64,000 bases of DNA from Escherichia coli (GCF_030013595.1 NZ_CP122768.1), one strand, 5' to 3'; counted from the first letter of the stretch, positions 30,496-53,686 are shown. Translations and numbers: made by a program. Notes: generated by a model not told the origin, from the letters alone.

Positions 30496-31410
30496 TTACT
30501 GCAGCAGGCTGGAAACCATGCTGGACATGCTGTTGGACTGTTTCAGCATGGTGATGCCGGTCTGCATCAGCACCTGCTGTTTGGTCATGTTGGACGCTTC
30601 CGTCGCGTAGTCGGTATCCATGATGTTACCGATAGCAACTTCGGTGTTGTCCTGCATGCTGGTCAGGTTATTAGCCGTGTCGTTCAGACGGTTGATAGAC
30701 GCACCCAGTTTGGACTGGATCTGAGACACGTCATCCATCGCGGTAGAGATGCTGGTGATCATCTGGTTAGCCGAGCCAGACGCAGTCAGCTCAGTACCGC
30801 CAGAAACGCCTGCGGTGCCCGTGGTGTCAGCCTGATCCGCACTAAAGGAGTTGCTGATAGCAGAAAGATCAGTCACCAGGGTATTCAGCTGGCTTGAAAT
30901 ATTCACGGTCATGGTGTCGGAAGATTCCGCGCCCACCTGGAAAGTTACCGCGCTCTGGAACAGACCGTCAGTACCGGTGTTGCTGGTGCCGGAAACACCG
31001 AACAGGTTGGTGCCGCCGTAAGTGGTGTTTTGCAGCATGTCAGACATCTGCTGGCCCAGTTCGTCGTATTCGTCCTGCATCGCCTGCAGGTCGTCGTCGC
31101 TGTAGGTGCCGTTCGCTGCCTGAGTTGACAGGTCTTTCATACGACCCAGCACGTCAGACATTTCGTCGAACATGCTGTCAGCGGTTTGCAGCATCGCGGT
31201 GGCATCATTGATGTTGCTCAGCGCAACACCCATACCGCTGGACTGTGCTGTCAGACGGTTAGCAATTTGTTTGCCTGCGGCGTCATCGGCAGAAGAGTTA
31301 ATCCGGTTACCCGTTGCCAGGCGTTCCATAGATGTAGACAGAGAAGAGCTGCTTTTGCTGATTGCATTAACGGCGGCCATTGAGGCGTTATTGGTGTTAA
31401 TAGATAACAT
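30496..31410 (-). CDS. lafA: lateral flagellin
   Basis: ORF trimmed to MLSINTNNASMAAVNAISKSSSSLSTSMERLATGNRINSSADDAAGKQIANRL... (flagellin N-terminus) with C-terminal ...QTGITMLKQSNSMSSMVSSLLQ; AAGGA 8 nt upstream of ATG 31410. Confidence 0.9.
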   Translation of the reverse strand: MLSINTNNASMAAVNAISKSSSSLSTSMERLATGNRINSSADDAAGKQIANRLTAQSSGMGVALSNINDATAMLQTADSMFDEMSDVLGRMKDLSTQAANGTYSDDDLQAMQDEYDELGQQMSDMLQNTTYGGTNLFGVSGTSNTGTDGLFQSAVTFQVGAESSDTMTVNISSQLNTLVTDLSAISNSFSADQADTTGTAGVSGGTELTASGSANQMITSISTAMDDVSQIQSKLGASINRLNDTANNLTSMQDNTEVAIGNIMDTDYATEASNMTKQQVLMQTGITMLKQSNSMSSMVSSLLQ

Positions 31411-41537: not shown

Positions 41538-42251
41538 TCACGCCACATCACTGTCGGCATCGGGTACGCCAAACTGGCTAATCATGGTGAACGGCACTTC
41601 GCCCACGCCTGCAACATTGAGCACCGGAGAGCCGCCGTCGAGCGGGATGCGTACATCTTCCACTTCGCCGGAAACTTCAATCGGCACCTCTTCTTCCCCG
41701 GTGTTGGTCACCACCGAGACGTCGTAATCACCCGGCGGGATACCGTAATCCGCCGGATTAATCGAGAAATCCACCTGGCCTGGCCCGACGGACGAACTGC
41801 CTTCCGGGATCAGCGACACCGTATAGTCATCGCCTGCGGCATCGGTAAAGTGGAGATCGGCGGTGGTACAGGCGTCGTCAAGCGTGGCGCGACCATTAAT
41901 GGTCTGGTCGCTCACCTGCAAGGCGGTGGTCTGCACCATAATGTCGTCACCCACCAGGTTGCCGAGCGCCATTACCTGAATGTTGCTCATCAGCACCGCG
42001 TTGGTGTTGGCCTGCACGCTCATCTCTTCCATCATCGCCACCTGCGCCATCGACGAAAGCTGGTCGATGTATTCGGTGGCGTCAGTCGGGTCGGTCGGGT
42101 CCTGGTTTTGGATCTCGGCGACAAACAGCGTCAGGAAGGTATCGACGGGCGAGCTATCGCTGCTGCTTGTCGTGTCGCTGGCCGCCACGTTGTTGCTTTC
42201 CGCCGTGGCGGTCGGCTGCGGCGATTGCGCATTCAGCACCAAGGTATTCAT
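41538..42251 (-). CDS. lfgD: FlgD-like hook capping/scaffold protein
   Basis: 237 aa with FlgD-like N-terminus ...VDTFLTLFVAEIQNQDPTDPTDATEYIDQL. Confidence 0.8.
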   Translation of the reverse strand: MNTLVLNAQSPQPTATAESNNVAASDTTSSSDSSPVDTFLTLFVAEIQNQDPTDPTDATEYIDQLSSMAQVAMMEEMSVQANTNAVLMSNIQVMALGNLVGDDIMVQTTALQVSDQTINGRATLDDACTTADLHFTDAAGDDYTVSLIPEGSSSVGPGQVDFSINPADYGIPPGDYDVSVVTNTGEEEVPIEVSGEVEDVRIPLDGGSPVLNVAGVGEVPFTMISQFGVPDADSDVA

Positions 42252-42682
42252 CAGGCTTCTCCCAGTTTCAGCAAACTTTGCTGCATACTTTTCACGTTGT
42301 TGAGCACATCGACATTGGTTTCGAAATCGCGCGAGGCCGACATCATGTCCGCCATCTGTTCCACCACGTTGACGTCGGGATACCAGACATCCCCGTTAGC
42401 ATCCGCCAGCGGCGAATGCGGTTCATAGCGTTTCACCGCCCCGCCGGTTTGCAGCACGTCCTGCACCTGCACGCTGGCACCATCGATCGCATGGCGATGC
42501 GTTCCCGCCAGCAAGCTGTGGTGATACACCGCCGCAAACACCGGGCTGCGCGCTTTATACGCCTGTGCCTCGCTGCCGGCAGGTGCATTGGCATTCGCCA
42601 GGTTACTGGCAACGGTATTCAGACGTAGCGTTTGCGCCGTCATCGCCGAACCGGAAATCTGATAGATATCAGTAAATGACAT
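42251..42682 (-). CDS. lfgC: FlgC-like rod protein
   Basis: 143 aa, MSFTDIYQISGSAMTAQTLRLNTVASNLANANA... Confidence 0.88.
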   Translation of the reverse strand: MSFTDIYQISGSAMTAQTLRLNTVASNLANANAPAGSEAQAYKARSPVFAAVYHHSLLAGTHRHAIDGASVQVQDVLQTGGAVKRYEPHSPLADANGDVWYPDVNVVEQMADMMSASRDFETNVDVLNNVKSMQQSLLKLGEA

Positions 42683-44026: not shown

Positions 44027-45451
44027 ATGTCTGAATTTGAATTGCTCGTGAAAGATCTTCTTTTAAAATCAGAAGAAGACGAGAAAAAGCGACAAGAAAA
44101 AGATCGAGAATTAATTTCAAAGGTTCTTGAAATCTATGATCAAAAATATGTTGCAGAACTCCTACGAAAAGTAGGAAAAAATGAATGGAGCAGAGAAACA
44201 CTTAACCGTTGGATAAATGGTAAGTGTAACCCTAAACAATTAACTTCTGCTGAGGAAACTTTACTTCGAAAGATGCTTCCAGAACCTCCCGAACATCATC
44301 CTAACTATACATTTCGTTTTATTGATTTATTCGCAGGGATTGGTGGTATTCGTAAAGGCTTCGAAAATATTGGTGGGCAGTGTGTTTTTACTAGCGAATG
44401 GAATAAAGAAGCGGTAAGAACCTACAAAGCTAATTGGTTTAATGATGAACTAAATCATAAATTTAATCTTGATATACGAGAAGTCACTTTAAGTGATAGA
44501 GATGATGTTTCCGAAATGGAAGCCTATAATCATATAGACAAAAATATTCCAGATCATGATGTCCTTCTGGCCGGTTTTCCATGTCAGCCCTTTAGTCTGG
44601 CTGGGGTAAGCAAGAAAAATTCTCTGGGGCGTGCACATGGTTTTGAATGTGAGGCACAAGGAACACTATTTTTTGATGTCGCTCGAATTATTAAATCAAA
44701 AAAACCAGCTATTTTTGTGCTTGAGAATGTGAAGAACCTTAAAAGTCATGATAAAGGTAAGACTTTTAAAGTCATCATGGAAACACTCAATGAATTAGGG
44801 TATGAAGTCGCCGATGCTGGTGTGACTGGCTCAGATGATCCTAAAATTATAGATGGAAAACATTTTTTACCCCAACATCGTGAGCGTATAGTGTTGGTAG
44901 GATTTCGTAGGGATCTAAATATTCACAAGGATTTCACGTTACGAAATATTAACCGCTTTTACCCTCAAAACAGGCCAACATTTGGTGAATTATTAGATCA
45001 TGATGTTGACGACAAATATATTTTGACTCCAAGGTTATGGGAATATCTTTACAATTATGCAAAAAAACATGCAGCAAAAGGAAATGGATTTGGTTTTGGT
45101 TTAGTGGATCCTAAAAATCCAGATAGTATCGCACGAACGCTGTCTGCTCGTTACCATAAAGATGGCTCTGAAATACTGATCGATCGTGGCTGGGATAAGG
45201 CTGTCGGTGAAATCGATTTTAGTAATCCAGCGAATCAAGAGAATCGACCAAGAAGACTGACACCTCATGAATGTGCCAGGTTAATGGGTTTTGAAAAACC
45301 AGGGGGAAGACCTTTTAGAATACCTGTATCAGATACTCAAGCTTATAGACAATTTGGGAACTCAGTTGTTGTGCCAGTATTTGAAGCTGTAGCAAGATTA
45401 CTAGAACCGTACATACAAAAGGCTGTCAGCATGCAAGTTATTAACGATTAA
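44027..45451 (+). CDS. DNA (cytosine-5)-methyltransferase, Dcm/M.EcoRII-like (predicted CCWGG specificity)
   Basis: 474 aa with motifs [15 protein letters not shown] (I), [10 protein letters not shown] (IV), ENVKNL (VI), [10 protein letters not shown] (X); collinear with E. coli Dcm as recalled; ACGGGGG RBS; AT-rich compared with flanking flagellar genes. Confidence 0.85.
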
Positions 45452-45474
45452 TAATAATTAACTTTCACTATTGT

Positions 45475-45498
45475 GAGGCCTTTTTTATTAAAGGCCTC
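45475..45498. terminator. bidirectional hairpin between the convergent methyltransferase and endonuclease genes
   Basis: gaggccttttttattaaaggcctc perfect stem-loop in the 87-bp convergent intergenic region. Confidence 0.6.
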
Positions 45499-45538
45499 TA
45501 AATATATAATCATAAGTTATTATAAGTATACTTTTATA

Positions 45539-46744
45539 TTATATAAAATCTTCATACAGCGTTATTAACTGTGTGATAAAACCCTCTAACGTTAATAATC
45601 CATCCCTGATTTCCTCCGGATATTTTTTATGAAGAGGGGAAGGTACAACCAAGGTGACACCTTCAGCTCTCATTTCGTTAAATTGAGCAACTGAGACACC
45701 CTCTTGTAAGGTAAACAAATATATTTTGTTGATTTTATTTGCTTCATTGAGTGCCTGACGCCACCGATCCTTACATGTTGTTTTTACAGCAAGCATACGG
45801 AGTTTTTCTCTTGGAAAGTGATCATCATGGTAAGCTGCCGCTGATGGAAAAAGAAAATCGGGTTTCTTTTTTCCTTCAGTAATACATTGAGTAGCAAAAT
45901 GATGCAGTCCATGCTCAATAAAAATTTGCTCAAGATGTAGCTCCAGTGATTTCCCGGCTCGAGATTTTCTTCGATTACTAACAGAGTTAGCCATAGCTAT
46001 AAAATCATCTACAGAACCAAACCCTTGACGGATGATGTCCAGTACGTGAATTTCTTCAACCATTAGAAAGAGATCATATTCAATACGGCGGCGTTCTAAA
46101 AGTTGGTCATCTGGACTGGTTACGCCTGTTGGGTAATAACCCGCAGCATATTGAATAATCTCTAAGCCAGAAGGAAAGCTATGTTTCCAGCTTTCCGGAA
46201 TAACATATTCCTTTTGAGAGATTTTTGGCCTTGATGCGAGTACACCAAGTATTTCACTGGCAGGCCCAAACATTAAAGTTCCAGGAATGATCTCCCCAAT
46301 AGCTGATTCCAGTACATCCTCTTCTTCTGGGCTAACACAAACCCATACATCAACACTTTTGCTGTCTCTCCCTGGCTCATGTTCAAACGCAAGCACAGAC
46401 AAAGCACCTGTATTTTCCGGATCCTGTAGGGGACTGCCAGCCCCCCACCGAGTGATGCGTTTTTCATTTCTTGTTTGCCCGAAATACTTATTATTGTAGT
46501 AAATAGCGCGAACCTCACTGTCTACACATTCATGAGAGGAATAAGTTGCGCGCAATAAAACCGAAGGATTTTTTTCTGACGTATGATCTATAGATGGGAA
46601 AAGTTCAGCGACGATACCAGAAGGGATATATACCCCCACTTGATGCCCTCCTGTTGCACCAGTGTCGTTTGCTGAAAGACGTTTAATATAGAGATAGTTG
46701 TTACCACCGACCTTATCAAGCAGCCAATCTTGTAATCCTGACAT
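45539..46744 (-). CDS. type II restriction endonuclease, EcoRII-like
   Basis: 401 aa; N-terminal ...YIKRLSANDTGATGGHQVGVYIPSGIV... and overall collinearity with R.EcoRII as recalled; convergent partner of a Dcm-like methylase. Confidence 0.65.
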   Translation of the reverse strand: MSGLQDWLLDKVGGNNYLYIKRLSANDTGATGGHQVGVYIPSGIVAELFPSIDHTSEKNPSVLLRATYSSHECVDSEVRAIYYNNKYFGQTRNEKRITRWGAGSPLQDPENTGALSVLAFEHEPGRDSKSVDVWVCVSPEEEDVLESAIGEIIPGTLMFGPASEILGVLASRPKISQKEYVIPESWKHSFPSGLEIIQYAAGYYPTGVTSPDDQLLERRRIEYDLFLMVEEIHVLDIIRQGFGSVDDFIAMANSVSNRRKSRAGKSLELHLEQIFIEHGLHHFATQCITEGKKKPDFLFPSAAAYHDDHFPREKLRMLAVKTTCKDRWRQALNEANKINKIYLFTLQEGVSVAQFNEMRAEGVTLVVPSPLHKKYPEEIRDGLLTLEGFITQLITLYEDFI

Positions 46745-46797: not shown

Positions 46798-46831
46798 CAG
46801 AACGACCAGAACGACCAGAACGACCAGAACC
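46798..46831. repeat. tandem 9-bp repeat (CAGAACGAC, three full copies plus one partial) in the endonuclease/lfgM divergent region
   Basis: cag-aacgaccag-aacgaccag-aacgaccag-aacc read directly, 54-87 bp upstream of the endonuclease ATG. Confidence 0.9.
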
Positions 46832-46934
46832 AACATATCTGAACAAAAAGTAAATATGCGATAACGATTAAAGTTTTGCCGCCTGTTAACCGCTTTACCG
46901 GAGTAACCCACCTAAATACCGAGACGAGGTTGCG

Positions 46935-47210
46935 ATGAAAATCACCCCGACTATGCCAGGCAATCGCCCGACAGTCACAACGGCAGGCTCCAGCCAGCCG
47001 CGCAAAGGCACGGCGACCACCACGACGCTAAGCGCCGACGACATTACCCAGGCGGGATTGCAGTCTGCCCAGCAAACACTGAACGACCAGCAAGAGAGCG
47101 ATATCGACAGCGATAAAGTGGCGCAAATGCAGGCGATGCTGGCCTCCGGCAGCCTGCAAGTGGACACCGAACAGTTAGCCAGCGACATGCTGAGTTTTTT
47201 CCAGAACTAA
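46935..47210 (+). CDS. lfgM: FlgM-like anti-sigma-28 factor
   Basis: 91 aa; C-terminal ...VAQMQAMLASGSLQVDTEQLASDMLSFFQN matches the FlgM sigma-28-binding region; GAGG RBS. Confidence 0.8.
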   Translation: MKITPTMPGNRPTVTTAGSSQPRKGTATTTTLSADDITQAGLQSAQQTLNDQQESDIDSDKVAQMQAMLASGSLQVDTEQLASDMLSFFQN

Positions 47211-47222
47211 GAGGCCGATGAA

Positions 47223-47651
47223 GTGAGTATCAGGTTACAACAGGTGAAGGCGTTGTTGCAGGGAATTCGTGACGATGACGCGCTGTATGATTCCCTGCGC
47301 GAACTTCTCCAGCGCCAGCGGATCTGCATGATTCGCCGCGCCAGCGAAGAGCTGCTGGCGGTAAACGAGGAGATAACCCATCACTATGAGCAGTTGCATG
47401 GGCATAGCCATCAGCGACACAGCCTGCTGAAAATGCTCGGTGTTAGCGTAAATCGTGACGGTCTGGCGCAGGTATTTGCCTGGCTTCCGGCGGTACAAAA
47501 AGCGGCAGCACAACAGTTGTGGCAACGCCTTGAGCAAAAAGCGGAACGCTGCAAAGCCTACAACGACAAAAACGGCGAGCAGTTGATTCGCCAGTATGAA
47601 TTTATTCAGTCTTTTTTAGGCAGCGAAGCGGATTTTCTGTACCAGGAATAA
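47223..47651 (+). CDS. lfgN: FlgN-like chaperone
   Basis: 142-aa helical protein starting at GTG 47223 with AGAGG upstream; follows lfgM as in flgM-flgN pairs. Confidence 0.7.
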   Translation: MSIRLQQVKALLQGIRDDDALYDSLRELLQRQRICMIRRASEELLAVNEEITHHYEQLHGHSHQRHSLLKMLGVSVNRDGLAQVFAWLPAVQKAAAQQLWQRLEQKAERCKAYNDKNGEQLIRQYEFIQSFLGSEADFLYQE

Positions 47652-47778
47652 CGACCATTCCTTCCCCCATCGCGGAAACGGATTTTCCGCCTGATTCACA
47701 ATCCTTTGTTTTTGATTATAAAAAATCACGGCACGCTTATTGCACATTCCGCAAAGTAATAAAGACTGGAAGCCACCT

Positions 47779-48609
47779 ATGAGTTTTATTGAATGTTACG
47801 AACCGGAATACGTGCGCAATTTTATGACGCAATATCCCGATTCGCCTTTGTACATCCGCAAGGTGTGGAAAAACGAGATTCGCCTGAGCCTGATGCTGAC
47901 AGAGCCAGAAAGTTGCGAAGCGGTGCTCAACGATGCCAGGGCCTTTGATTTACAGCTCACCTACCGCCCGGCGGAAGAAAATGCCGCAGAGCTTTCCGCG
48001 CGCGATGCGATAGTAAACCAGGTCATTTTGAGTACCCTCACGCTCCCCGATTTAACCCCAGAGCTTTCACTATATGCCATCGGGATTTTACTCTCCCGCG
48101 CCAGCAAAATGCCGGGCAGAGACGGAGATATTCTTGCCCGTTTGACGACGCTGCCGCAGGCGCTGGCCGATCATGCGAAAAAAGGCACGCTACAGGCACA
48201 GTTCGCCCAACTTCCGCCCGTGCCACAGCTGGCGCGTCACCTGGCCACGCTACTCGGGAGTTTTACGTTTGACTGGTCGATTTTGCCGGAAAGCCCGCGC
48301 AAAACTTCGCTGCCGTTGCAGATGCCTTTGCTGGCGCTACATGACGCCAACAGCGAAGCCCTGGTGCAACAGCAGCTTCAGGCTCAGTGGCAAACCACCT
48401 GGCAACAGCATTTTGCCACCGCGCCCTGGATGATGCGTAACTGGCTGATTTACCGCGTTTACCATGAGGTGATTGGACAGGCAGACGGAGCAGATTATTG
48501 CCCGCTGGTGTGCGATTTTTATCTTATCCGCACGTTAATCAGTTTTATGGACGCTGGATGGTTCTCCGCTGCGACAGGAGGATATTTTCGCCCTTTTTGC
48601 GGTGTTTGA
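47779..48609 (+). CDS. hypothetical protein in the Flag-2 variable region
   Basis: ORF 47740..48609 begins at a TTG; first ATG with GGAAG RBS is 47779 (MSFIECYEPEYVRNF...); no recognisable domain. Confidence 0.55.
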   Translation: MSFIECYEPEYVRNFMTQYPDSPLYIRKVWKNEIRLSLMLTEPESCEAVLNDARAFDLQLTYRPAEENAAELSARDAIVNQVILSTLTLPDLTPELSLYAIGILLSRASKMPGRDGDILARLTTLPQALADHAKKGTLQAQFAQLPPVPQLARHLATLLGSFTFDWSILPESPRKTSLPLQMPLLALHDANSEALVQQQLQAQWQTTWQQHFATAPWMMRNWLIYRVYHEVIGQADGADYCPLVCDFYLIRTLISFMDAGWFSAATGGYFRPFCGV

Positions 48610-48729
48610 ACGCTGGCGAGAGAGTGAAAATGCGCTGTTTATTCGCCAGCAAATTCAGTCGTTATGTGCGGCAGAGCCGCTGCTTTCAGCATTTTCGCTG
48701 CTGACGTGAGTCGCTCTGTGCGCGCTTTT

Positions 48730-48845
48730 CCCCTCACCCTAACCCTCTCCCCAAAGGGGCGAGGGAACCGATCGAGCACGGTGTTAAAATCGGCGCTGGT
48801 TTTCTCCCCTCTCCCTGTGGGAGAGGGTCGGGGTGAGGGCATCAG
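48730..48845. repeat. GC-rich composite palindromic intergenic repeat, copy C
   Basis: ccctcaccctaaccctctccccaaaggggcgagggaacc ... cccctctccctgtgggagagggtcggggtgaggg, same orientation as copy B. Confidence 0.7.
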
Positions 48846-48888
48846 CACGCACATTCATCACATTCACCCCTTAACTCACCCAGACACC

Positions 48889-51360
48889 ATGCCAACACAA
48901 ACCATCATCAAAACACTCGCCACCCACCGCGAAAAACCGTTTGTCAGCGTCGTCACGCCAACCTGGAACCGTGGCGCATTCCTGCCGTACCTGCTTTATA
49001 TGTACCGCTATCAGGATTACCCGGCAGACCGCCGCGAACTCATCATCCTCGACGACTCGCCGCAAAGCCATCAACACATCATCGACCGCCTGACCAATGG
49101 CACACCGGAAGCCTTTAACATCCGCTATATTCATCACCCGGAAAAACTGCCACTGGGCAAAAAACGCAACATGCTCAACGAACTGGCGAGCGGCGAATAC
49201 ATCCTCTGCATGGACGATGACGACTACTACCCGGCAGATAAAATCTCCTGGACCATCGCCATGATGCAAAAACATAGGGCGCTCATCTCCGGCTCCGACC
49301 AGATCCCCATCTGGTACAGCCACATCAACCGCATTTTCAAAAGCCGCAGCTTTGGCCCGCATAACATCCTCAACGGCACCTTTTGCTATCACCGTAACTA
49401 CCTGAAAAAGCACCGTTACGACGACGATAGCAATTTAGGCGAAGAGAAAAGTTTCACCAACAATTTCAGCGTTAACCCGCTACAACTGCCCGGCGAGCGC
49501 ACGATTCTGTGTATCTCGCACAGCCACAACACCTTTGATAAAGACTTTATTCTCGGGGCCAGCACGCCTGTAAACGCGGCGCTTACGGATATCGTCCGCG
49601 ATCCGCTGCTCCGCAATGCTTATCTGAGTCTGCATAACGCCACTCATCACCAGGCGATCAACCATCAGGCGATCGATCAGATCGTTCTGCTGAATCTGGA
49701 TAAACGCCCGGATCGCTTACAACAGATCCGTGAAGAACTGGCATTGCTGCATATTCCACCTGAGAAGATCACCCGCCTTGCCGCCAGTGAAGATCAAAAC
49801 GGTCAACGGGGTCGCCGCCAGTCGCACTTGCAGGCGCTGCGCCTGGCGCAACAGCACGGCTGGCAAAACTATCTGCTGCTGGAAGATGACGCGGTTATTC
49901 TCAAGCAGGAGAAACATATTCAGGTGCTGAACACGCTGCTGGCGAGCCTGGCGAAAATTCCCTGGCAGGTGATGATCCTTGGCGGCGAAATTTCGCAAGG
50001 AACTATGCTAAAAAGTTTGCCGGGGCTGGTGCACGCGCGGGACTGCCGCAAAGTGTGCGCTTATCTGGTGAACAGCCGCTACTACCCGCAACTGGCGCAG
50101 CAGATGAGCAACGATGAGCACTCGCTGGAAGCCTGCTGGCAGCCGCTGCTACACGCCGACAAATGGCTGGCCTGTTACCCGAGCCTTTGTTACCAGCGAC
50201 CGGGCTTTAGCGATATCGAGAAAAAAGTCACCGACAACATTAGTCACTATTTCAATAAGTTACACGTAACCACCAAGCCATCCACGTTACCCATCGCCGA
50301 CACCATCGGCTTTTTTATGGAAACCTCATTCCACTACGCGCTGTATCGCCCAATCATCACCGCTCTACAGGCGCAGGGGGAGAGCTGCACGCTGGTGATC
50401 AACGACCGCGTGTTTAAACCGTTTCTGGATGAAATGCTGGAGACGCTAAAAAGCATCGACGACCCACAGCTTAAAGGTATGCGCTTGTCTGAGATGCAGG
50501 CACACGGCCAGCGGATGAAATGCCTGGTCAGCCCCTACCACACGCCCGCGCTCAATGGCCTGGCAGCGGTGAACGTTCGCGCCATGTATGGCTTAGCCAA
50601 AGAAACGTGGAACCACGCCGACTGGAACCGTTTTTATCAGCGCATTTTGTGTTACAGCCACTACAGCCAGCAGGCGCTGGCGCATTTCGGTAGCGCAAAA
50701 GTGGTCGGCAACCCACGCTTCGACGCCTGGCATAACGGCACGTTCGACCGCACTCTGCCGGAAAATATCCAACCCGATTCCTGTAAACCTACGGTGCTCT
50801 ACGCCCCTACGTTTGGCGCACTAAGCTCCCTGCCCCACTGGGCAGAAAAATTAGGCCGCTTAAGTGGCAATGTGAATCTGATTTGCAAACTGCACCACGG
50901 CACCTGCTCGCGCCCGGAAGAAACTGCATCGCTGGCACTGGCGCGCAGGCATTTAAAACGGCGCACCGACTCCGCCCGCCACACGCTGGCGCTGCTGGCA
51001 AAGGCCGATTACGTGCTGACCGATAACAGCGGCTTTATTTTCGATGCTATTCACGTTGATAAGCGGGTGATCCTGCTCGACTTTCCGGGCATGAGTGAAT
51101 TGCTCGACGGCGAGAAAAGCTACTCCACGCCGGAGAGCGCCGATCAGCAAATCCGCGAAATATTGCCGGTGGCTCATGATATGGCAGAGTTGCGTTACTT
51201 GTTGTCAGAGGCGTTTGACTGGGGGGCGGTGCAGACACGGCTTAAGGAGATTCGTCATCACTATTGCGATGCGTTTATGGATGGCAAGGCGGGAGAACGG
51301 GCGGCGATGGTGATTGTTGAGGCGCTGGCGGACAAGGAACCGTCAGGGATATGTCGATAA
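48889..51360 (+). CDS. three-domain glycosyltransferase: N-terminal GT2-like, central GT25-like, C-terminal CDP-glycerol glycerophosphotransferase (TagF)-like
   Basis: 823 aa from ATG 48889; VVTPTWNR...CMDDDD (GT-A/DXD); IVLLNLDKRPDRLQQI...LLLEDDAVIL (GT25-like); VLYAPTFG and YVLTDNSGFIFDAIHV (TagF-family signatures). Confidence 0.7.
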   Translation: MPTQTIIKTLATHREKPFVSVVTPTWNRGAFLPYLLYMYRYQDYPADRRELIILDDSPQSHQHIIDRLTNGTPEAFNIRYIHHPEKLPLGKKRNMLNELASGEYILCMDDDDYYPADKISWTIAMMQKHRALISGSDQIPIWYSHINRIFKSRSFGPHNILNGTFCYHRNYLKKHRYDDDSNLGEEKSFTNNFSVNPLQLPGERTILCISHSHNTFDKDFILGASTPVNAALTDIVRDPLLRNAYLSLHNATHHQAINHQAIDQIVLLNLDKRPDRLQQIREELALLHIPPEKITRLAASEDQNGQRGRRQSHLQALRLAQQHGWQNYLLLEDDAVILKQEKHIQVLNTLLASLAKIPWQVMILGGEISQGTMLKSLPGLVHARDCRKVCAYLVNSRYYPQLAQQMSNDEHSLEACWQPLLHADKWLACYPSLCYQRPGFSDIEKKVTDNISHYFNKLHVTTKPSTLPIADTIGFFMETSFHYALYRPIITALQAQGESCTLVINDRVFKPFLDEMLETLKSIDDPQLKGMRLSEMQAHGQRMKCLVSPYHTPALNGLAAVNVRAMYGLAKETWNHADWNRFYQRILCYSHYSQQALAHFGSAKVVGNPRFDAWHNGTFDRTLPENIQPDSCKPTVLYAPTFGALSSLPHWAEKLGRLSGNVNLICKLHHGTCSRPEETASLALARRHLKRRTDSARHTLALLAKADYVLTDNSGFIFDAIHVDKRVILLDFPGMSELLDGEKSYSTPESADQQIREILPVAHDMAELRYLLSEAFDWGAVQTRLKEIRHHYCDAFMDGKAGERAAMVIVEALADKEPSGICR

Positions 51361-51504
51361 AATTCGATTTTTTAAACATGTCGTTGGAATACGTTTATGC
51401 CATCGACATGTTTTGGCGATATGTCGAAAAAACACGATTTTTTAAACATATTTAACATAGCCAAACGGCAGACGGCATCATCTTCTCTCACAGCGGGAAT
51501 TAAA

Positions 51505-51909
51505 TCAGTAGGTGGCTGATTTACCCCTAATCACCTCAATGATCCCCGTCGTCGACACCGACGGCGTGCGGGGGAAATACACCACCTCACAAATATACGC
51601 AAAGCTGTCAAACTTCCCTGCCCAATCATCACCCATCACCAGAATATCCGCACCGTACCCCCGCAGATACTCCGCTTTCTGCTCCAGCGATTCTTCCAGA
51701 AATACGCCATCCACGCACGCCAGCCCGGCGATGATCGCCATGCGGTCATCCTGATGGTAAACCGGCGCTCTGCCCTTTTTGGCAATATTTAAGGCGTCGG
51801 ACGATACGCCGACCAGCAGCCGTTCGCCCAGCGTGCGGGCGCGTTGTAAAAGGCGCAGATGACCGACGTGAAACACATCGAAGGTGCCAAAGGTGATGAC
51901 CGTTTTCAT
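51505..51909 (-). CDS. glycerol-3-phosphate cytidylyltransferase (TagD-like; CDP-glycerol synthesis)
   Basis: 134 aa MKTVITFGTFDVFHVGHLRLLQRA...VMGDDWAGKFD...EVVYFPRTPSVSTTGII with HxGH and C-terminal motifs matching TagD; ATG directly follows the lfiJ stop with GGAG RBS. Confidence 0.85.
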   Translation of the reverse strand: MKTVITFGTFDVFHVGHLRLLQRARTLGERLLVGVSSDALNIAKKGRAPVYHQDDRMAIIAGLACVDGVFLEESLEQKAEYLRGYGADILVMGDDWAGKFDSFAYICEVVYFPRTPSVSTTGIIEVIRGKSATY

Positions 51910-51911
51910 GG

Positions 51912-52346
51912 CTACTCCGCTAATTTGTGCCGCAGCCAGCACTGAACGGCGATATCGTCCACCGCTTTTTGCGCTTTCGCGTTGGCGCTTTCCTGCTGCT
52001 CGCGGCGTTTGTCGTCCAGCGTCAGGGCCACCACTTTCTCTTCGCACGCCGCCGCCGTCAGGTTTTTCTGCATTCGCGTGGCTTTGATGTTAGCCAGCGT
52101 TTTTTCCTGCTCCTGCCATGCGATCACCTTGCGCAAAGTGCCTTTGTAGCCGCTGACGTTTTTCAGCGATTCCACCGACGCCGCCGCGCCCGCAGACGTT
52201 TTCTCCACAAGGTAGCCTAACGCCTTGATATTGTTGTCATAGCCCGCGCAGATCTGTTTTTGCTTTGCCAGTTCGACGGTTTTGTCTTTGACCGATTTAT
52301 CCCGCAGGCGCTGCAACTGCGCCAGGGTGTCGATGATTTGTCGCAT
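51912..52346 (-). CDS. lfiJ: FliJ-like export apparatus protein
   Basis: 144-aa coiled-coil protein following the FliI-like ATPase gene. Confidence 0.7.
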   Translation of the reverse strand: MRQIIDTLAQLQRLRDKSVKDKTVELAKQKQICAGYDNNIKALGYLVEKTSAGAAASVESLKNVSGYKGTLRKVIAWQEQEKTLANIKATRMQKNLTAAACEEKVVALTLDDKRREQQESANAKAQKAVDDIAVQCWLRHKLAE

Positions 52347-52348
52347 GG

Positions 52349-53686
52349 TTACTGTTCTGCCTTTTTGGCGGTGGGAAAGAGAATTTGCAGGCGGCTTTGC
52401 ACCAGTTCCAGGGAGGCGGGTTCGCGCATCTCCTGGCGCAAAAATCGCTCGATAGCCGGGAACATTTTCACCGCTTTGTCGACGCTGGCATCCGCGCCTG
52501 CCACGTAGCCGCCGAGTGGGATCAGCGGTTTGATCTCCATATAGGCGGCGTAGTTTTGCTTTAACGCGCGGGCGGATTGCTGATGTTCCAGGCTTGTGAC
52601 CTGGTTCATGCAGCGGCTGATCGACTGACCGATATCAATGGCCGGATAGTGCCCCGCTTCCGCCAGTTTGCGGGTTAATACGATATGCCCGTCCAGCACC
52701 GCGCGGGCGCAGTCAACGATGGGATCTTGCTGGTCGTCGCCTTCCGCCAGCACGGTGTAGATGGCGGTCATCGATCCCGCGCTTTCGCTGTTGCCTGCGC
52801 TCTCGACCAGTTTGGGGATCATGCCGAATGCCGATGGCGGATAGCCTTTGGTGGCGGGCGGTTCGCCGAGCGAGAGAGCAATTTCCCGCTGTGCCATCGC
52901 GTAGCGGGTCAGGGAATCCACCAGCAGTAAAACGTGATGCCCGCGGTCACGAAACCAGGCGGCGATGGAGTGGCACAGTTCGGTGGCTTTCAGGCGCATC
53001 AGCGGCGATTCATCGGCGGGCGCGACAACAACGATAGACTTTGCCAGCCCGTCCGCGCCCAACGAGTGGTCGATAAACTCTTTCACTTCGCGCCCGCGTT
53101 CGCCAATCAGCCCGACCACCACGATGTCTGCTTTGGTCTGGCGGGTGATCATCCCCAGCAGCACACTTTTCCCGACGCCGCTGCCCGCCATCAGACCGAC
53201 GCGCTGGCCTTTGCCGATGGTCAGCAGGCCGTTGATCGCTTTCACGCCCACGTCCAGCGGTTCGTCCACTGAACGGCGGGTTAAGGGATTAACCGAGGGC
53301 GGCAGCGGCGGCAGAAGGTCATTGCCGTTCAGGCGGCCTTTGCCATCCAGCGGTTCGCCGAGGCCATTCACCACGCGGCCTAACCAGCTTTCGCCAATCA
53401 GGATGTCGTGGGCTTTTTCTTCCGGGAAGACGCGTGCGCCCGCCATCAGGCCGACCGGCAGTTTAAACGGCATCAGGTAGGTGATGTCGCGATTAAAGCC
53501 TACGGCCTGCGCGTCGATAAGCGTGTGGTTGGCGCTTTCGATGCGGCACAGCTGCCCGGTCATTAGCGGGCAGCCGACGCTCTCCAGCAGGATGCCGTTT
53601 AGGCGCACCAGCCGCCCGGCGACGCGGGCCAGCGGGATCGACTCCAGCGAGCGCAGGGCGTTATCGAAAGCGGAAAAATCACTCAC
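52349..53686 (-). CDS. lfiI: FliI-like flagellum-specific export ATPase
   Basis: 445 aa with Walker A GSGVGKS and FliI/F1-ATPase-like architecture. Confidence 0.9.
   Translation of the reverse strand: MSDFSAFDNALRSLESIPLARVAGRLVRLNGILLESVGCPLMTGQLCRIESANHTLIDAQAVGFNRDITYLMPFKLPVGLMAGARVFPEEKAHDILIGESWLGRVVNGLGEPLDGKGRLNGNDLLPPLPPSVNPLTRRSVDEPLDVGVKAINGLLTIGKGQRVGLMAGSGVGKSVLLGMITRQTKADIVVVGLIGERGREVKEFIDHSLGADGLAKSIVVVAPADESPLMRLKATELCHSIAAWFRDRGHHVLLLVDSLTRYAMAQREIALSLGEPPATKGYPPSAFGMIPKLVESAGNSESAGSMTAIYTVLAEGDDQQDPIVDCARAVLDGHIVLTRKLAEAGHYPAIDIGQSISRCMNQVTSLEHQQSARALKQNYAAYMEIKPLIPLGGYVAGADASVDKAVKMFPAIERFLRQEMREPASLELVQSRLQILFPTAKKAEQ

Follow-up and report, generated by a model that had tools for sequence, protein, structure and literature searches.

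Which product do the transferase genes that lie between lfgN and lfiJ in the second, lateral-type flagellar (Flag-2) locus of Escherichia make? We addressed this question in a stretch of 64,000 nucleotides of Escherichia coli (GCF_030013595.1, NZ_CP122768.1), hereafter the window, to which all positions refer unless another locus is named, and in particular in its segment 47779-51909. From the sequence of this segment, an earlier reading (the original prediction) had proposed a 276-residue gene of unknown nature, an 823-residue protein combining GT2-like, GT25-like and CDP-glycerol glycerophosphotransferase-like glycosyltransferase (GT) regions, and a glycerol-3-phosphate cytidylyltransferase, and hence a glycan containing glycerol-phosphate on the lateral flagellin LafA or another flagellar component. 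Our analysis finds a TagD-like cytidylyltransferase and, at the end of the 823-residue protein, a TagF-like module, which occur together across genera, and a glycerol-phosphate flagellin glycan is a plausible interpretation of these genes. We hold it moderately probable that the segment is a cytoplasmic module for the post-translational modification of LafA.

In the Escherichia Flag-2 locus, the segment constitutes variable region 1 (VR1), which has already been described: De Maayer, Pillay & Coutinho (BMC Genomics 2020; PMC6993521) defined VR1 between lfiJ and lfgN and concluded that teichoic-acid-type glycopolymers are a probable part of the flag-2 flagellin glycan. In their catalogue, the GT2-1 protein of ~828 residues, found in 222 Enterobacteriaceae strains, is annotated with pfam00535 only, the 133-residue TagD occurs in 235 strains, TagB1-8 occur as separate proteins in 65 strains, and VR1 also carries LtaS and LafV1-10 (LafV1, ~311 residues). 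Conserved VR1 glycosyltransferase and lysine-N-methylase genes also appear in a 2024 study of E. albertii. Since VR1, TagD, GT2-1 and teichoic-acid-type flagellin glycopolymers are all in the 2020 paper, the novelty that the original prediction implied falls away, and both its observation and its interpretation are essentially a rediscovery of an idea published for this locus in 2020. What we add is modest: TagF-like and GT25-like modules inside GT2-1, fission and fusion variants together with module swaps, covariation of tagD with one TagF-like clade, and a frameshift in lafV.

An open reading frame (ORF) scan gave the gene order of the Flag-2 locus in the window and returned every ORF of the original prediction in its place between lfgN and lfiJ. 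The left border of VR1 is lfgN (47223-47651, plus strand), a FlgN-type chaperone gene labelled 'flgN' by RefSeq in matching genomes and given zero matches by NCBIfam, and the right border is the FliJ export-apparatus gene lfiJ (51912-52346, minus strand; TIGR02473, E 2.4e-16, above the cut-off). Between them lie a lafV pseudogene (47779-48709, plus strand), the gene of the 823-residue tri-modular transferase (48889-51360, plus strand) and a tagD-like gene encoding 134 residues (51505-51909, minus strand), which RefSeq labels, respectively, as lysine-N-methylase or hypothetical protein, as glycosyltransferase, and as adenylyl/cytidylyltransferase-family or 'FAD synthase family' protein. All three are present in E. 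coli 042, the original Flag-2 strain, at 95% identity. Two E. coli assemblies from pig faeces match the surrounding 5.5 kb (46900-52400) at 99.9% identity, and E. coli 042 matches it at 95.1%. Of 5426 complete E. coli genomes, 1269 contain at least 80% of this stretch.

The tagD-like gene starts with an ATG 2 nt past the lfiJ stop codon, with a GGAG 6 nt upstream, within the last lfiJ codons. This bears out the earlier placement of a cytidylyltransferase gene with its own ribosome-binding site directly after lfiJ, as does the kinship of its product, and the gene is probably translationally coupled to lfiJ. The product matches TIGR01518 (E 3.5e-33) and aligns over its full length with B. subtilis TagD (PDB 1COZ; E 1.4e-32; 62 of 127 residues identical, 49%), followed in the PDB by S. 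aureus TarD (E 1.6e-27) and, next, by an ethanolamine-phosphate cytidylyltransferase (E 5e-16). The HxGH motif is present as FHVGH at residues 13-17 (His14 and His17), aligned with LHWGH of 1COZ; the RTxGISTT motif (Arg113) reads RTPSVSTT against RTEGISTT, so that Arg, Thr and STT are kept and GI is changed to SV; and VMGDDWxGKFD is conserved. The RYVDEVI of TagD is replaced by ACVDGVF. To judge from its sequence, the protein would make CDP-glycerol from CTP and sn-glycerol-3-phosphate.

The 823-residue protein is built of three modules, an arrangement supported by its homologues, its predicted structure and its gene context. Module 1 (residues 1-250; 48889-49638, plus strand, as are the other two) is a GT2-family GT-A unit, with a Pfam GT2 match (PF00535) at residues 20-133 of the single sequence (E 2e-16), a PDB match to PglI (E 1.5e-8) and the DxD motif DDD 109-111. 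Module 2 (residues 251-465; 49639-50283) is a GT25-like GT-A unit with the DxD motif EDD 332-334, and both motifs are invariant in an alignment of 24 homologues. The label 'GT25-like', which we use for a probable kinship, rests on a fold match and on a stand-alone relative. Searched with Foldseek against the PDB, the AlphaFold model of the protein (mean predicted local distance difference test score 75; confident at residues 14-128, 255-458 and 470-817) gave as its top match COLGALT1, a GT25 collagen galactosyltransferase with tandem GT-A domains (E 5e-11), and a small free-standing Leminorella protein with a weak PF01755 match on record shares 34% identity with the middle 215 residues (E 7e-41). 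Full-length relatives in the databases are many in Escherichia, Citrobacter and Enterobacter, with PF04464 and PF00535, and NCBI calls one of them 'bifunctional glycosyltransferase family 2 protein/CDP-glycerol:glycerophosphate glycerophosphotransferase'. PF01755 (GT25) is found in a relative from Plesiomonas, two relatives have a Capsule_synth (KpsC/S-type) domain in place of the C-terminal third, and many proteins of 460-480 residues match the first 55% of the protein only. No 19-residue stretch of the 823-residue protein reaches transmembrane hydrophobicity (maximum KD19 1.42), and the enzyme is therefore predicted to be cytoplasmic; the TagD-like protein likewise lacks transmembrane segments.

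Module 3 (residues 466-823; 50284-51360) is a TagF-like GT-B unit and a putative CDP-glycerol glycerophosphotransferase, with YAPT at 638, KLHH at 667 and TDNSGFIFD at 711. In the Foldseek search of the full model, this C-terminal GT-B module matched epimerases, TagF and the A. pleuropneumoniae Cps3D multienzyme, and its best structural matches are TagF and TarL. A PDB search with the single 823-residue sequence returned GT2 relatives only, and a family profile was needed to reach TarL: the C-terminal profile does so at E 0.008, with the YAPTF and TDxSxxxFD motifs aligned (LLYAPTFG against ILFAPTFR, and VLTDNSGFLFDA against LISDYSSLIYEY of TarL). Moreover, a free-standing Flag-2 protein of Pseudescherichia vulneris (357 residues), with a PF04464 match on record, shares 54% identity with the C-terminal 358 residues along their whole length (E 8e-130). 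When Pfam was run on the 24 aligned homologues, Glyphos_transf was found at E≤1e-3 in 9 of them (best 5e-8), GT25 in one, the distant Plesiomonas protein (5.4e-6), and Epimerase_2 in none.

The pairing of this module with a CDP-glycerol synthase was followed by tblastn with each module in 8 loci obtained by exact protein look-up and 31 obtained by a scan of species-representative genomes; loci were counted only if fliJ and flgN both lay inside the fetched DNA, that is, if the variable region was complete (28 loci). tagD was present in 20 of the 21 loci whose TagF-like module, fused or stand-alone, is at least 54% identical to that of the window, whereas it was found in none of the 7 loci with no TagF-like module or a divergent one only (33-42% identity; Fisher's exact p 7e-6, uncorrected for kinship, many of the loci being from Escherichia or Citrobacter). 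In Escherichia, Citrobacter, Enterobacter and Pseudescherichia alike, these genes keep their place beside lfiJ and lfgN. That prediction was to be given up if profile searches failed to support the TagF and TagD families; with the 49% identity to TagD, TagF and TarL as top structural matches and the co-occurrence with tagD across genera, the assignment stands.

The third module itself varies among the loci. Tri-domain homologues with a third module 33-42% identical to that of the window and no tagD nearby occur in L004, L006/L029, L007 and L030 (our locus numbers); the Plesiomonas copy adjoins motAB, together with genes for an NTP_transferase, a phosphoenolpyruvate-utilising enzyme and a glutamine amidotransferase, neighbours that hint that the activated donor may be another one. 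Loci with a KpsC/S-like third module, as taken from precomputed Pfam matches and not from tblastn, lack tagD. In L003, L009 and L033 this Capsule_synth module is fused or stand-alone and is accompanied by a small GT25-like protein, and L003 additionally encodes a hexapeptide acyltransferase. On these comparisons, the terminal transferase seems to have been exchanged as a module. The Glyphos_transf gene that directly adjoins tagD in Paramixta is a different, stand-alone one; tried as a relative of module 3, its product was not similar (E 0.007), and VR1 therefore holds at least two TagF-like lineages. Besides the fused module and tagD, two Citrobacter loci (L020, 11639-12673; L031, 11825-12694) have a second TagF-like gene that stands alone and is 46% identical to that of Paramixta.

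The ratio of non-synonymous to synonymous substitution rates (dN/dS) between the window and E. coli 042 was 0.12-0.16 for the three GT modules, 0.08 for tagD and 0.03-0.04 for lfiH, lfiI and lfiJ. Values were similar against three more Escherichia-type VR1 loci (L014, L015 and L036), and over all comparisons ranged from 0.08 to 0.16 for the GT modules and from 0.05 to 0.08 for tagD. These ratios are low, and the genes are therefore maintained by purifying selection. As to the origin of the sequences compared, three loci from records titled Pseudocitrobacter (L011, L016 and L036) have VR1 proteins 91-94% identical and FliJ 98-99% identical to those of Escherichia, which suggests recent transfer or mislabelling, and the Citrobacter-like locus of a record titled Chryseobacterium (L022) is likely to reflect contamination or mislabelling.

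The candidate acceptor, the lateral flagellin LafA (304 residues; lafA, 30496-31410, minus strand; NCBIfam NF033376, E 3e-201), contains 80 Ser and Thr residues and 6 Lys residues. Provided that Flag-2 is expressed in this strain, we infer that LafA would be the acceptor and CDP-glycerol the donor, and that the steps would run in the following order. The TagD-like enzyme, translated together with the export component LfiJ, would condense CTP and sn-glycerol-3-phosphate into CDP-glycerol. The soluble 823-residue enzyme, through its GT2 and then its GT25-like GT-A module, both with an intact DxD, would put one or two sugars from housekeeping UDP-sugars on Ser or Thr of LafA, and its TagF-like GT-B module would then move glycerol-phosphate from CDP-glycerol onto the LafA glycan. 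The decorated flagellin would leave through the flagellar type III apparatus, and in intact loci LafV would also methylate flagellin lysines.

Several observations weigh against this reading. The tri-domain architecture of the original prediction holds for GT2 by Pfam and for all three regions by homologues, structure and context, but on the 823-residue sequence alone the GT25 profile (PF01755) gave no match even at E≤10, so that module 2 goes undetected by it, and Glyphos_transf was marginal and not significant (residues 605-728, E 0.023). The confidence of the AlphaFold model is poor for residues 129-252. The catalytic histidines of TagF are H444 and H584 in S. epidermidis numbering; the candidates in module 3 are H482 (invariant), H576 (at least 90% conserved) and H669, which, by our reading of the sequences, the tagD-linked clade conserves but some homologues lack, and no equivalents of the TagF pair could be mapped among them. 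The TagD-like protein scores 114.4 bits, below the NCBIfam equivalog cut-off of 165.4, and passes the generic cytidylyltransferase model TIGR00125 only. Its Lys44 is kept and its Lys46 is replaced by Gly (KKGR against KQKK), with Lys45 and Arg47 flanking; in TagD, Lys46 contacts the phosphates of CDP-glycerol (residue roles from PMC8262930), and the P. vulneris flag-2 orthologue has KKAR at the same place. Among the loci, L028, from a metagenome-assembled Enterobacteriaceae genome, has the fused TagF-like module without tagD, and four divergent tri-domain homologues (Leminorella, Atlantibacter, a C. freundii strain and Plesiomonas) lack a local tagD. Some 17 kb separate lafA from VR1; a sigma-70 scan, a terminator scan and a search for sigma-28-type patterns gave nothing above chance, and no promoter was assigned. 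Literature searches found no experimental LafA mass, LafA glycosylation or Flag-2 expression data in Escherichia.

The departures of the TagD-like protein from TagD bear on the nature of the donor, which might be another CDP-activated compound (a phospho-amino acid, phosphoethanolamine or another polyol phosphate), so that the modification would not be glycerol-phosphate. The score under the equivalog cut-off, the changes at Lys46 and RYVDEVI, and an ethanolamine-phosphate cytidylyltransferase as next PDB match at E 5e-16 are in its favour, and C. difficile offers a precedent in FtaB and FtaD, the latter a TagF-like enzyme of a flagellin pathway that uses CDP-(methyl)threonine. Nevertheless, the two solved glycerol-3-phosphate enzymes lead the PDB matches by 16 orders of magnitude, the identity is 49% with VMGDDWxGKFD kept, and the VR1 of the window contains no SerB-type genes for the supply of a phospho-amino acid, so that we regard a different donor as improbable. 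The alternating action of the GT-A and TagF-like modules might instead build a teichoic-acid-like poly(glycosyl-glycerol-phosphate) on LafA or another acceptor, as Cps3D, Cps7D and Bcs3 do with their polymers. This mode of action is quite unlikely in our estimation: the region has no ABC transporter or kps-type export genes, no tetratricopeptide-repeat (TPR) or lipid-anchor module is seen in the enzyme, two distinct GT-A modules better fit a defined short glycan, and a long anionic polymer on unfolded flagellin is ill-suited to the narrow export channel. It seems to us very doubtful that TagD and the tri-modular enzyme make a chain of repeating, teichoic-acid-like glycosyl-glycerol-phosphate units attached covalently to the lateral flagellin itself. 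If they did, the chain would be without precedent as a protein-anchored polymer of the teichoic-acid type on a Gram-negative flagellum, and the module swaps (TagF-like or KpsC/S-like, with or without tagD) would amount to combinatorial diversification of a flagellar surface antigen.

It is also conceivable that the genes are cargo that merely resides in the flagellar locus, acting on a non-flagellar acceptor such as the lipopolysaccharide core or another surface protein, or persisting unexpressed as remnants of a Flag-2 system that has fallen silent. Flag-2 loci are known as hotspots at which cargo is inserted (PMC6993521), and an EcoRII-type restriction-modification pair lies 1 kb away; the system is inactive in E. 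coli 042 through a frameshift in lfgC, and lafV is broken in the window. On the other hand, different genera keep the genes in the same place between lfiJ and lfgN, the end of lfiJ and the start of tagD are 2 nt apart, the genes constantly adjoin the flagellin methylase gene lafV, dN/dS ratios of 0.05-0.16 speak against decay, and the remaining Flag-2 genes are intact in this lineage; we consider cargo an unlikely explanation. Our preferred reading remains the modification of LafA within the cytoplasm by a glycan that bears glycerol-phosphate.

The 276-residue ORF (47779-48609), which the original prediction had left as an unknown gene, proves to be lafV, a gene for a FliB-like flagellin lysine N-methylase, and it is broken here unless the extra T arose as a sequencing error in the homopolymer. 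It aligns base for base with a 930-nt, 309-residue gene of E. coli 042, bar one T: the run at 48543-48546 has 4 T in the window and 3 T in 042, which shifts the frame by +1 T, and the intact frame would end at 48709. RefSeq flags the copy of strain HCP5S3_I2 as 'lysine-N-methylase, frameshifted', and lafV homologues in other loci have Pfam FliB_C (PF27117) on record. In the window, lafV has neither an intact frame nor a family match above threshold, since the 276-residue product matches NCBIfam NF038110 (FliB flagellin lysine-N-methylase) weakly (E 2.5e-9; 37 bits against a cut-off of 85) and a Pfam search of the ORF gave zero matches. Because of the frameshift, lysine methylation of flagellin is predicted to be lost in this lineage.

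Two repeat structures flank the transferase gene. The non-coding spacer between lafV and the GT gene contains a GC-rich inverted repeat (48717-48853; 48-nt arms, 75% complementary) of the type CCCTCTCCC...GGGAGAGGG, which looks like an interspersed E. coli repeat because the 5.5-kb query matches a median of 8 places per E. coli genome. An 898-residue ORF was rejected: the 75 codons by which it lengthens the GT ORF upstream run through this intergenic repeat and are spurious. The GT and tagD genes converge, and their spacer (51348-51449) holds an 18-nt inverted repeat between two 32-nt direct repeats that lie 70 nt apart; the first of the direct repeats provides the last GT codons and the stop. 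The Escherichia GTs lack the conserved '...LLxSLQxKLF' tail of other genera, which suggests that an insertion clipped the end of the GT gene.

Beyond the borders of VR1, lfgM (46935-47210, plus strand; NCBIfam FlgM) lies upstream of lfgN, the genes lfiI, lfiH, lfiG and lfiF follow lfiJ from 51912 onward on the minus strand, as annotated by RefSeq, and dinB is the flanking gene. The restriction-modification pair is inserted between lfgA and lfgM (44027-46744, ~1 kb from VR1) and consists of a Dcm-like methyltransferase (PRK10458, E 7e-275) and an endonuclease (PDB 1NA6, EcoRII, E 4e-188); its GC content is 35-44%, against 55-60% in its surroundings, and E. coli 042 has no such pair at the same site. 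At the junction of the endonuclease gene and lfgM, the 9-bp unit GAACGACCA occurs in three tandem copies (46800-46827). lfgC (42251-42682; 1365-1798 of L001) is intact in the window and in HCP5S3_I2 and is frameshifted in E. coli 042. In HCP5S3_I2, which is 99.9% identical, lafV is the sole pseudogene of the whole Flag-2 cluster according to RefSeq, and the Flag-2 system of this lineage may therefore be functional.

If LafA is indeed modified in this way, an anionic glycerol-phosphate glycan could be present on the second flagellum in about one in four of the E. coli strains with complete genomes, and in many strains of Citrobacter and Enterobacter. This would affect antigenicity, recognition by phages and the immune system, and the surface charge of the filament, and would carry TagF/TagD chemistry beyond cell walls and capsules into the protein glycosylation of Enterobacteria. 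Our data pin the likely CDP-glycerol-using module to residues 466-823 of GT2-1 and show that this module covaries with tagD across genera. The pig-associated E. coli lineage, with a Flag-2 locus that is seemingly intact bar lafV, would be convenient for mass spectrometry of LafA.

With the glycerol-3-phosphate cytidylyltransferases of the TagD type (1COZ, TarD 2B7L, and A. pleuropneumoniae Cps3B and Cps7B), the TagD-like protein shares its length, HxGH, RTxxxSTT, VMGDDWxGKFD and Lys44, but those enzymes are encoded in cell-wall or capsule clusters, whereas the gene of the window belongs to a flagellar export operon. Two systems characterised by experiment operate on comparable lines and are precedents for the proposed reading, namely the type A flagellin glycan of C. 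difficile and the Gram-negative TagF-like capsule polymerases. The latter combine a GT-A or GT-B module fused to a TagF-like module with a cluster-encoded glycerol-3-phosphate cytidylyltransferase (PMC8262930). Compared with TagF and TarL and with Cps3D, Cps7D and Bcs3, the sequence similarity of the 823-residue protein is marginal (E ~0.01), its order is GT-A, GT-A, TagF-like, it has no visible membrane-association or TPR region, and it is accompanied by no export genes; the neighbours in the window are flagellar only, unlike a group 2 capsule cluster with kps export genes. Its presumed acceptor would be a protein-linked glycan, whereas the TagF- and Cps-type enzymes act on a lipid-linked polymer. 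COLGALT1 (GLT25D1, GT25) shares the tandem GT-A layout and the conserved EDD (DxD), but PF01755 does not detect the window protein.

The C. difficile pathway follows the same logic: after a GT2-type flagellin glycosyltransferase (FgtA/CD0240) has acted, the TagF-like FtaD, encoded with FtaA-C (FtaA-D, CD0241-0244), moves a CDP-activated phospho-group onto GlcNAc-FliC, that is, onto a flagellin-linked sugar (bioRxiv 10.64898/2026.02.12.704994). That pathway differs in its donor, CDP-(N-methyl)threonine, in its separate proteins and in its Gram-positive host, and the likeness is one of logic and not of demonstrated orthology. The closest system is the VR1 of the 2020 catalogue (PMC6993521), with which the window shares its place, its genes (GT2-1, TagD and LafV1) and the hypothesis. 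It differs from the catalogued VR1 in the frameshift of lafV and in the EcoRII-type pair inserted nearby, while the TagF-like and GT25-like modules are placed inside GT2-1 only in the present analysis; since the TagF-like module sits inside GT2-1, TagD is far commoner than stand-alone TagB.

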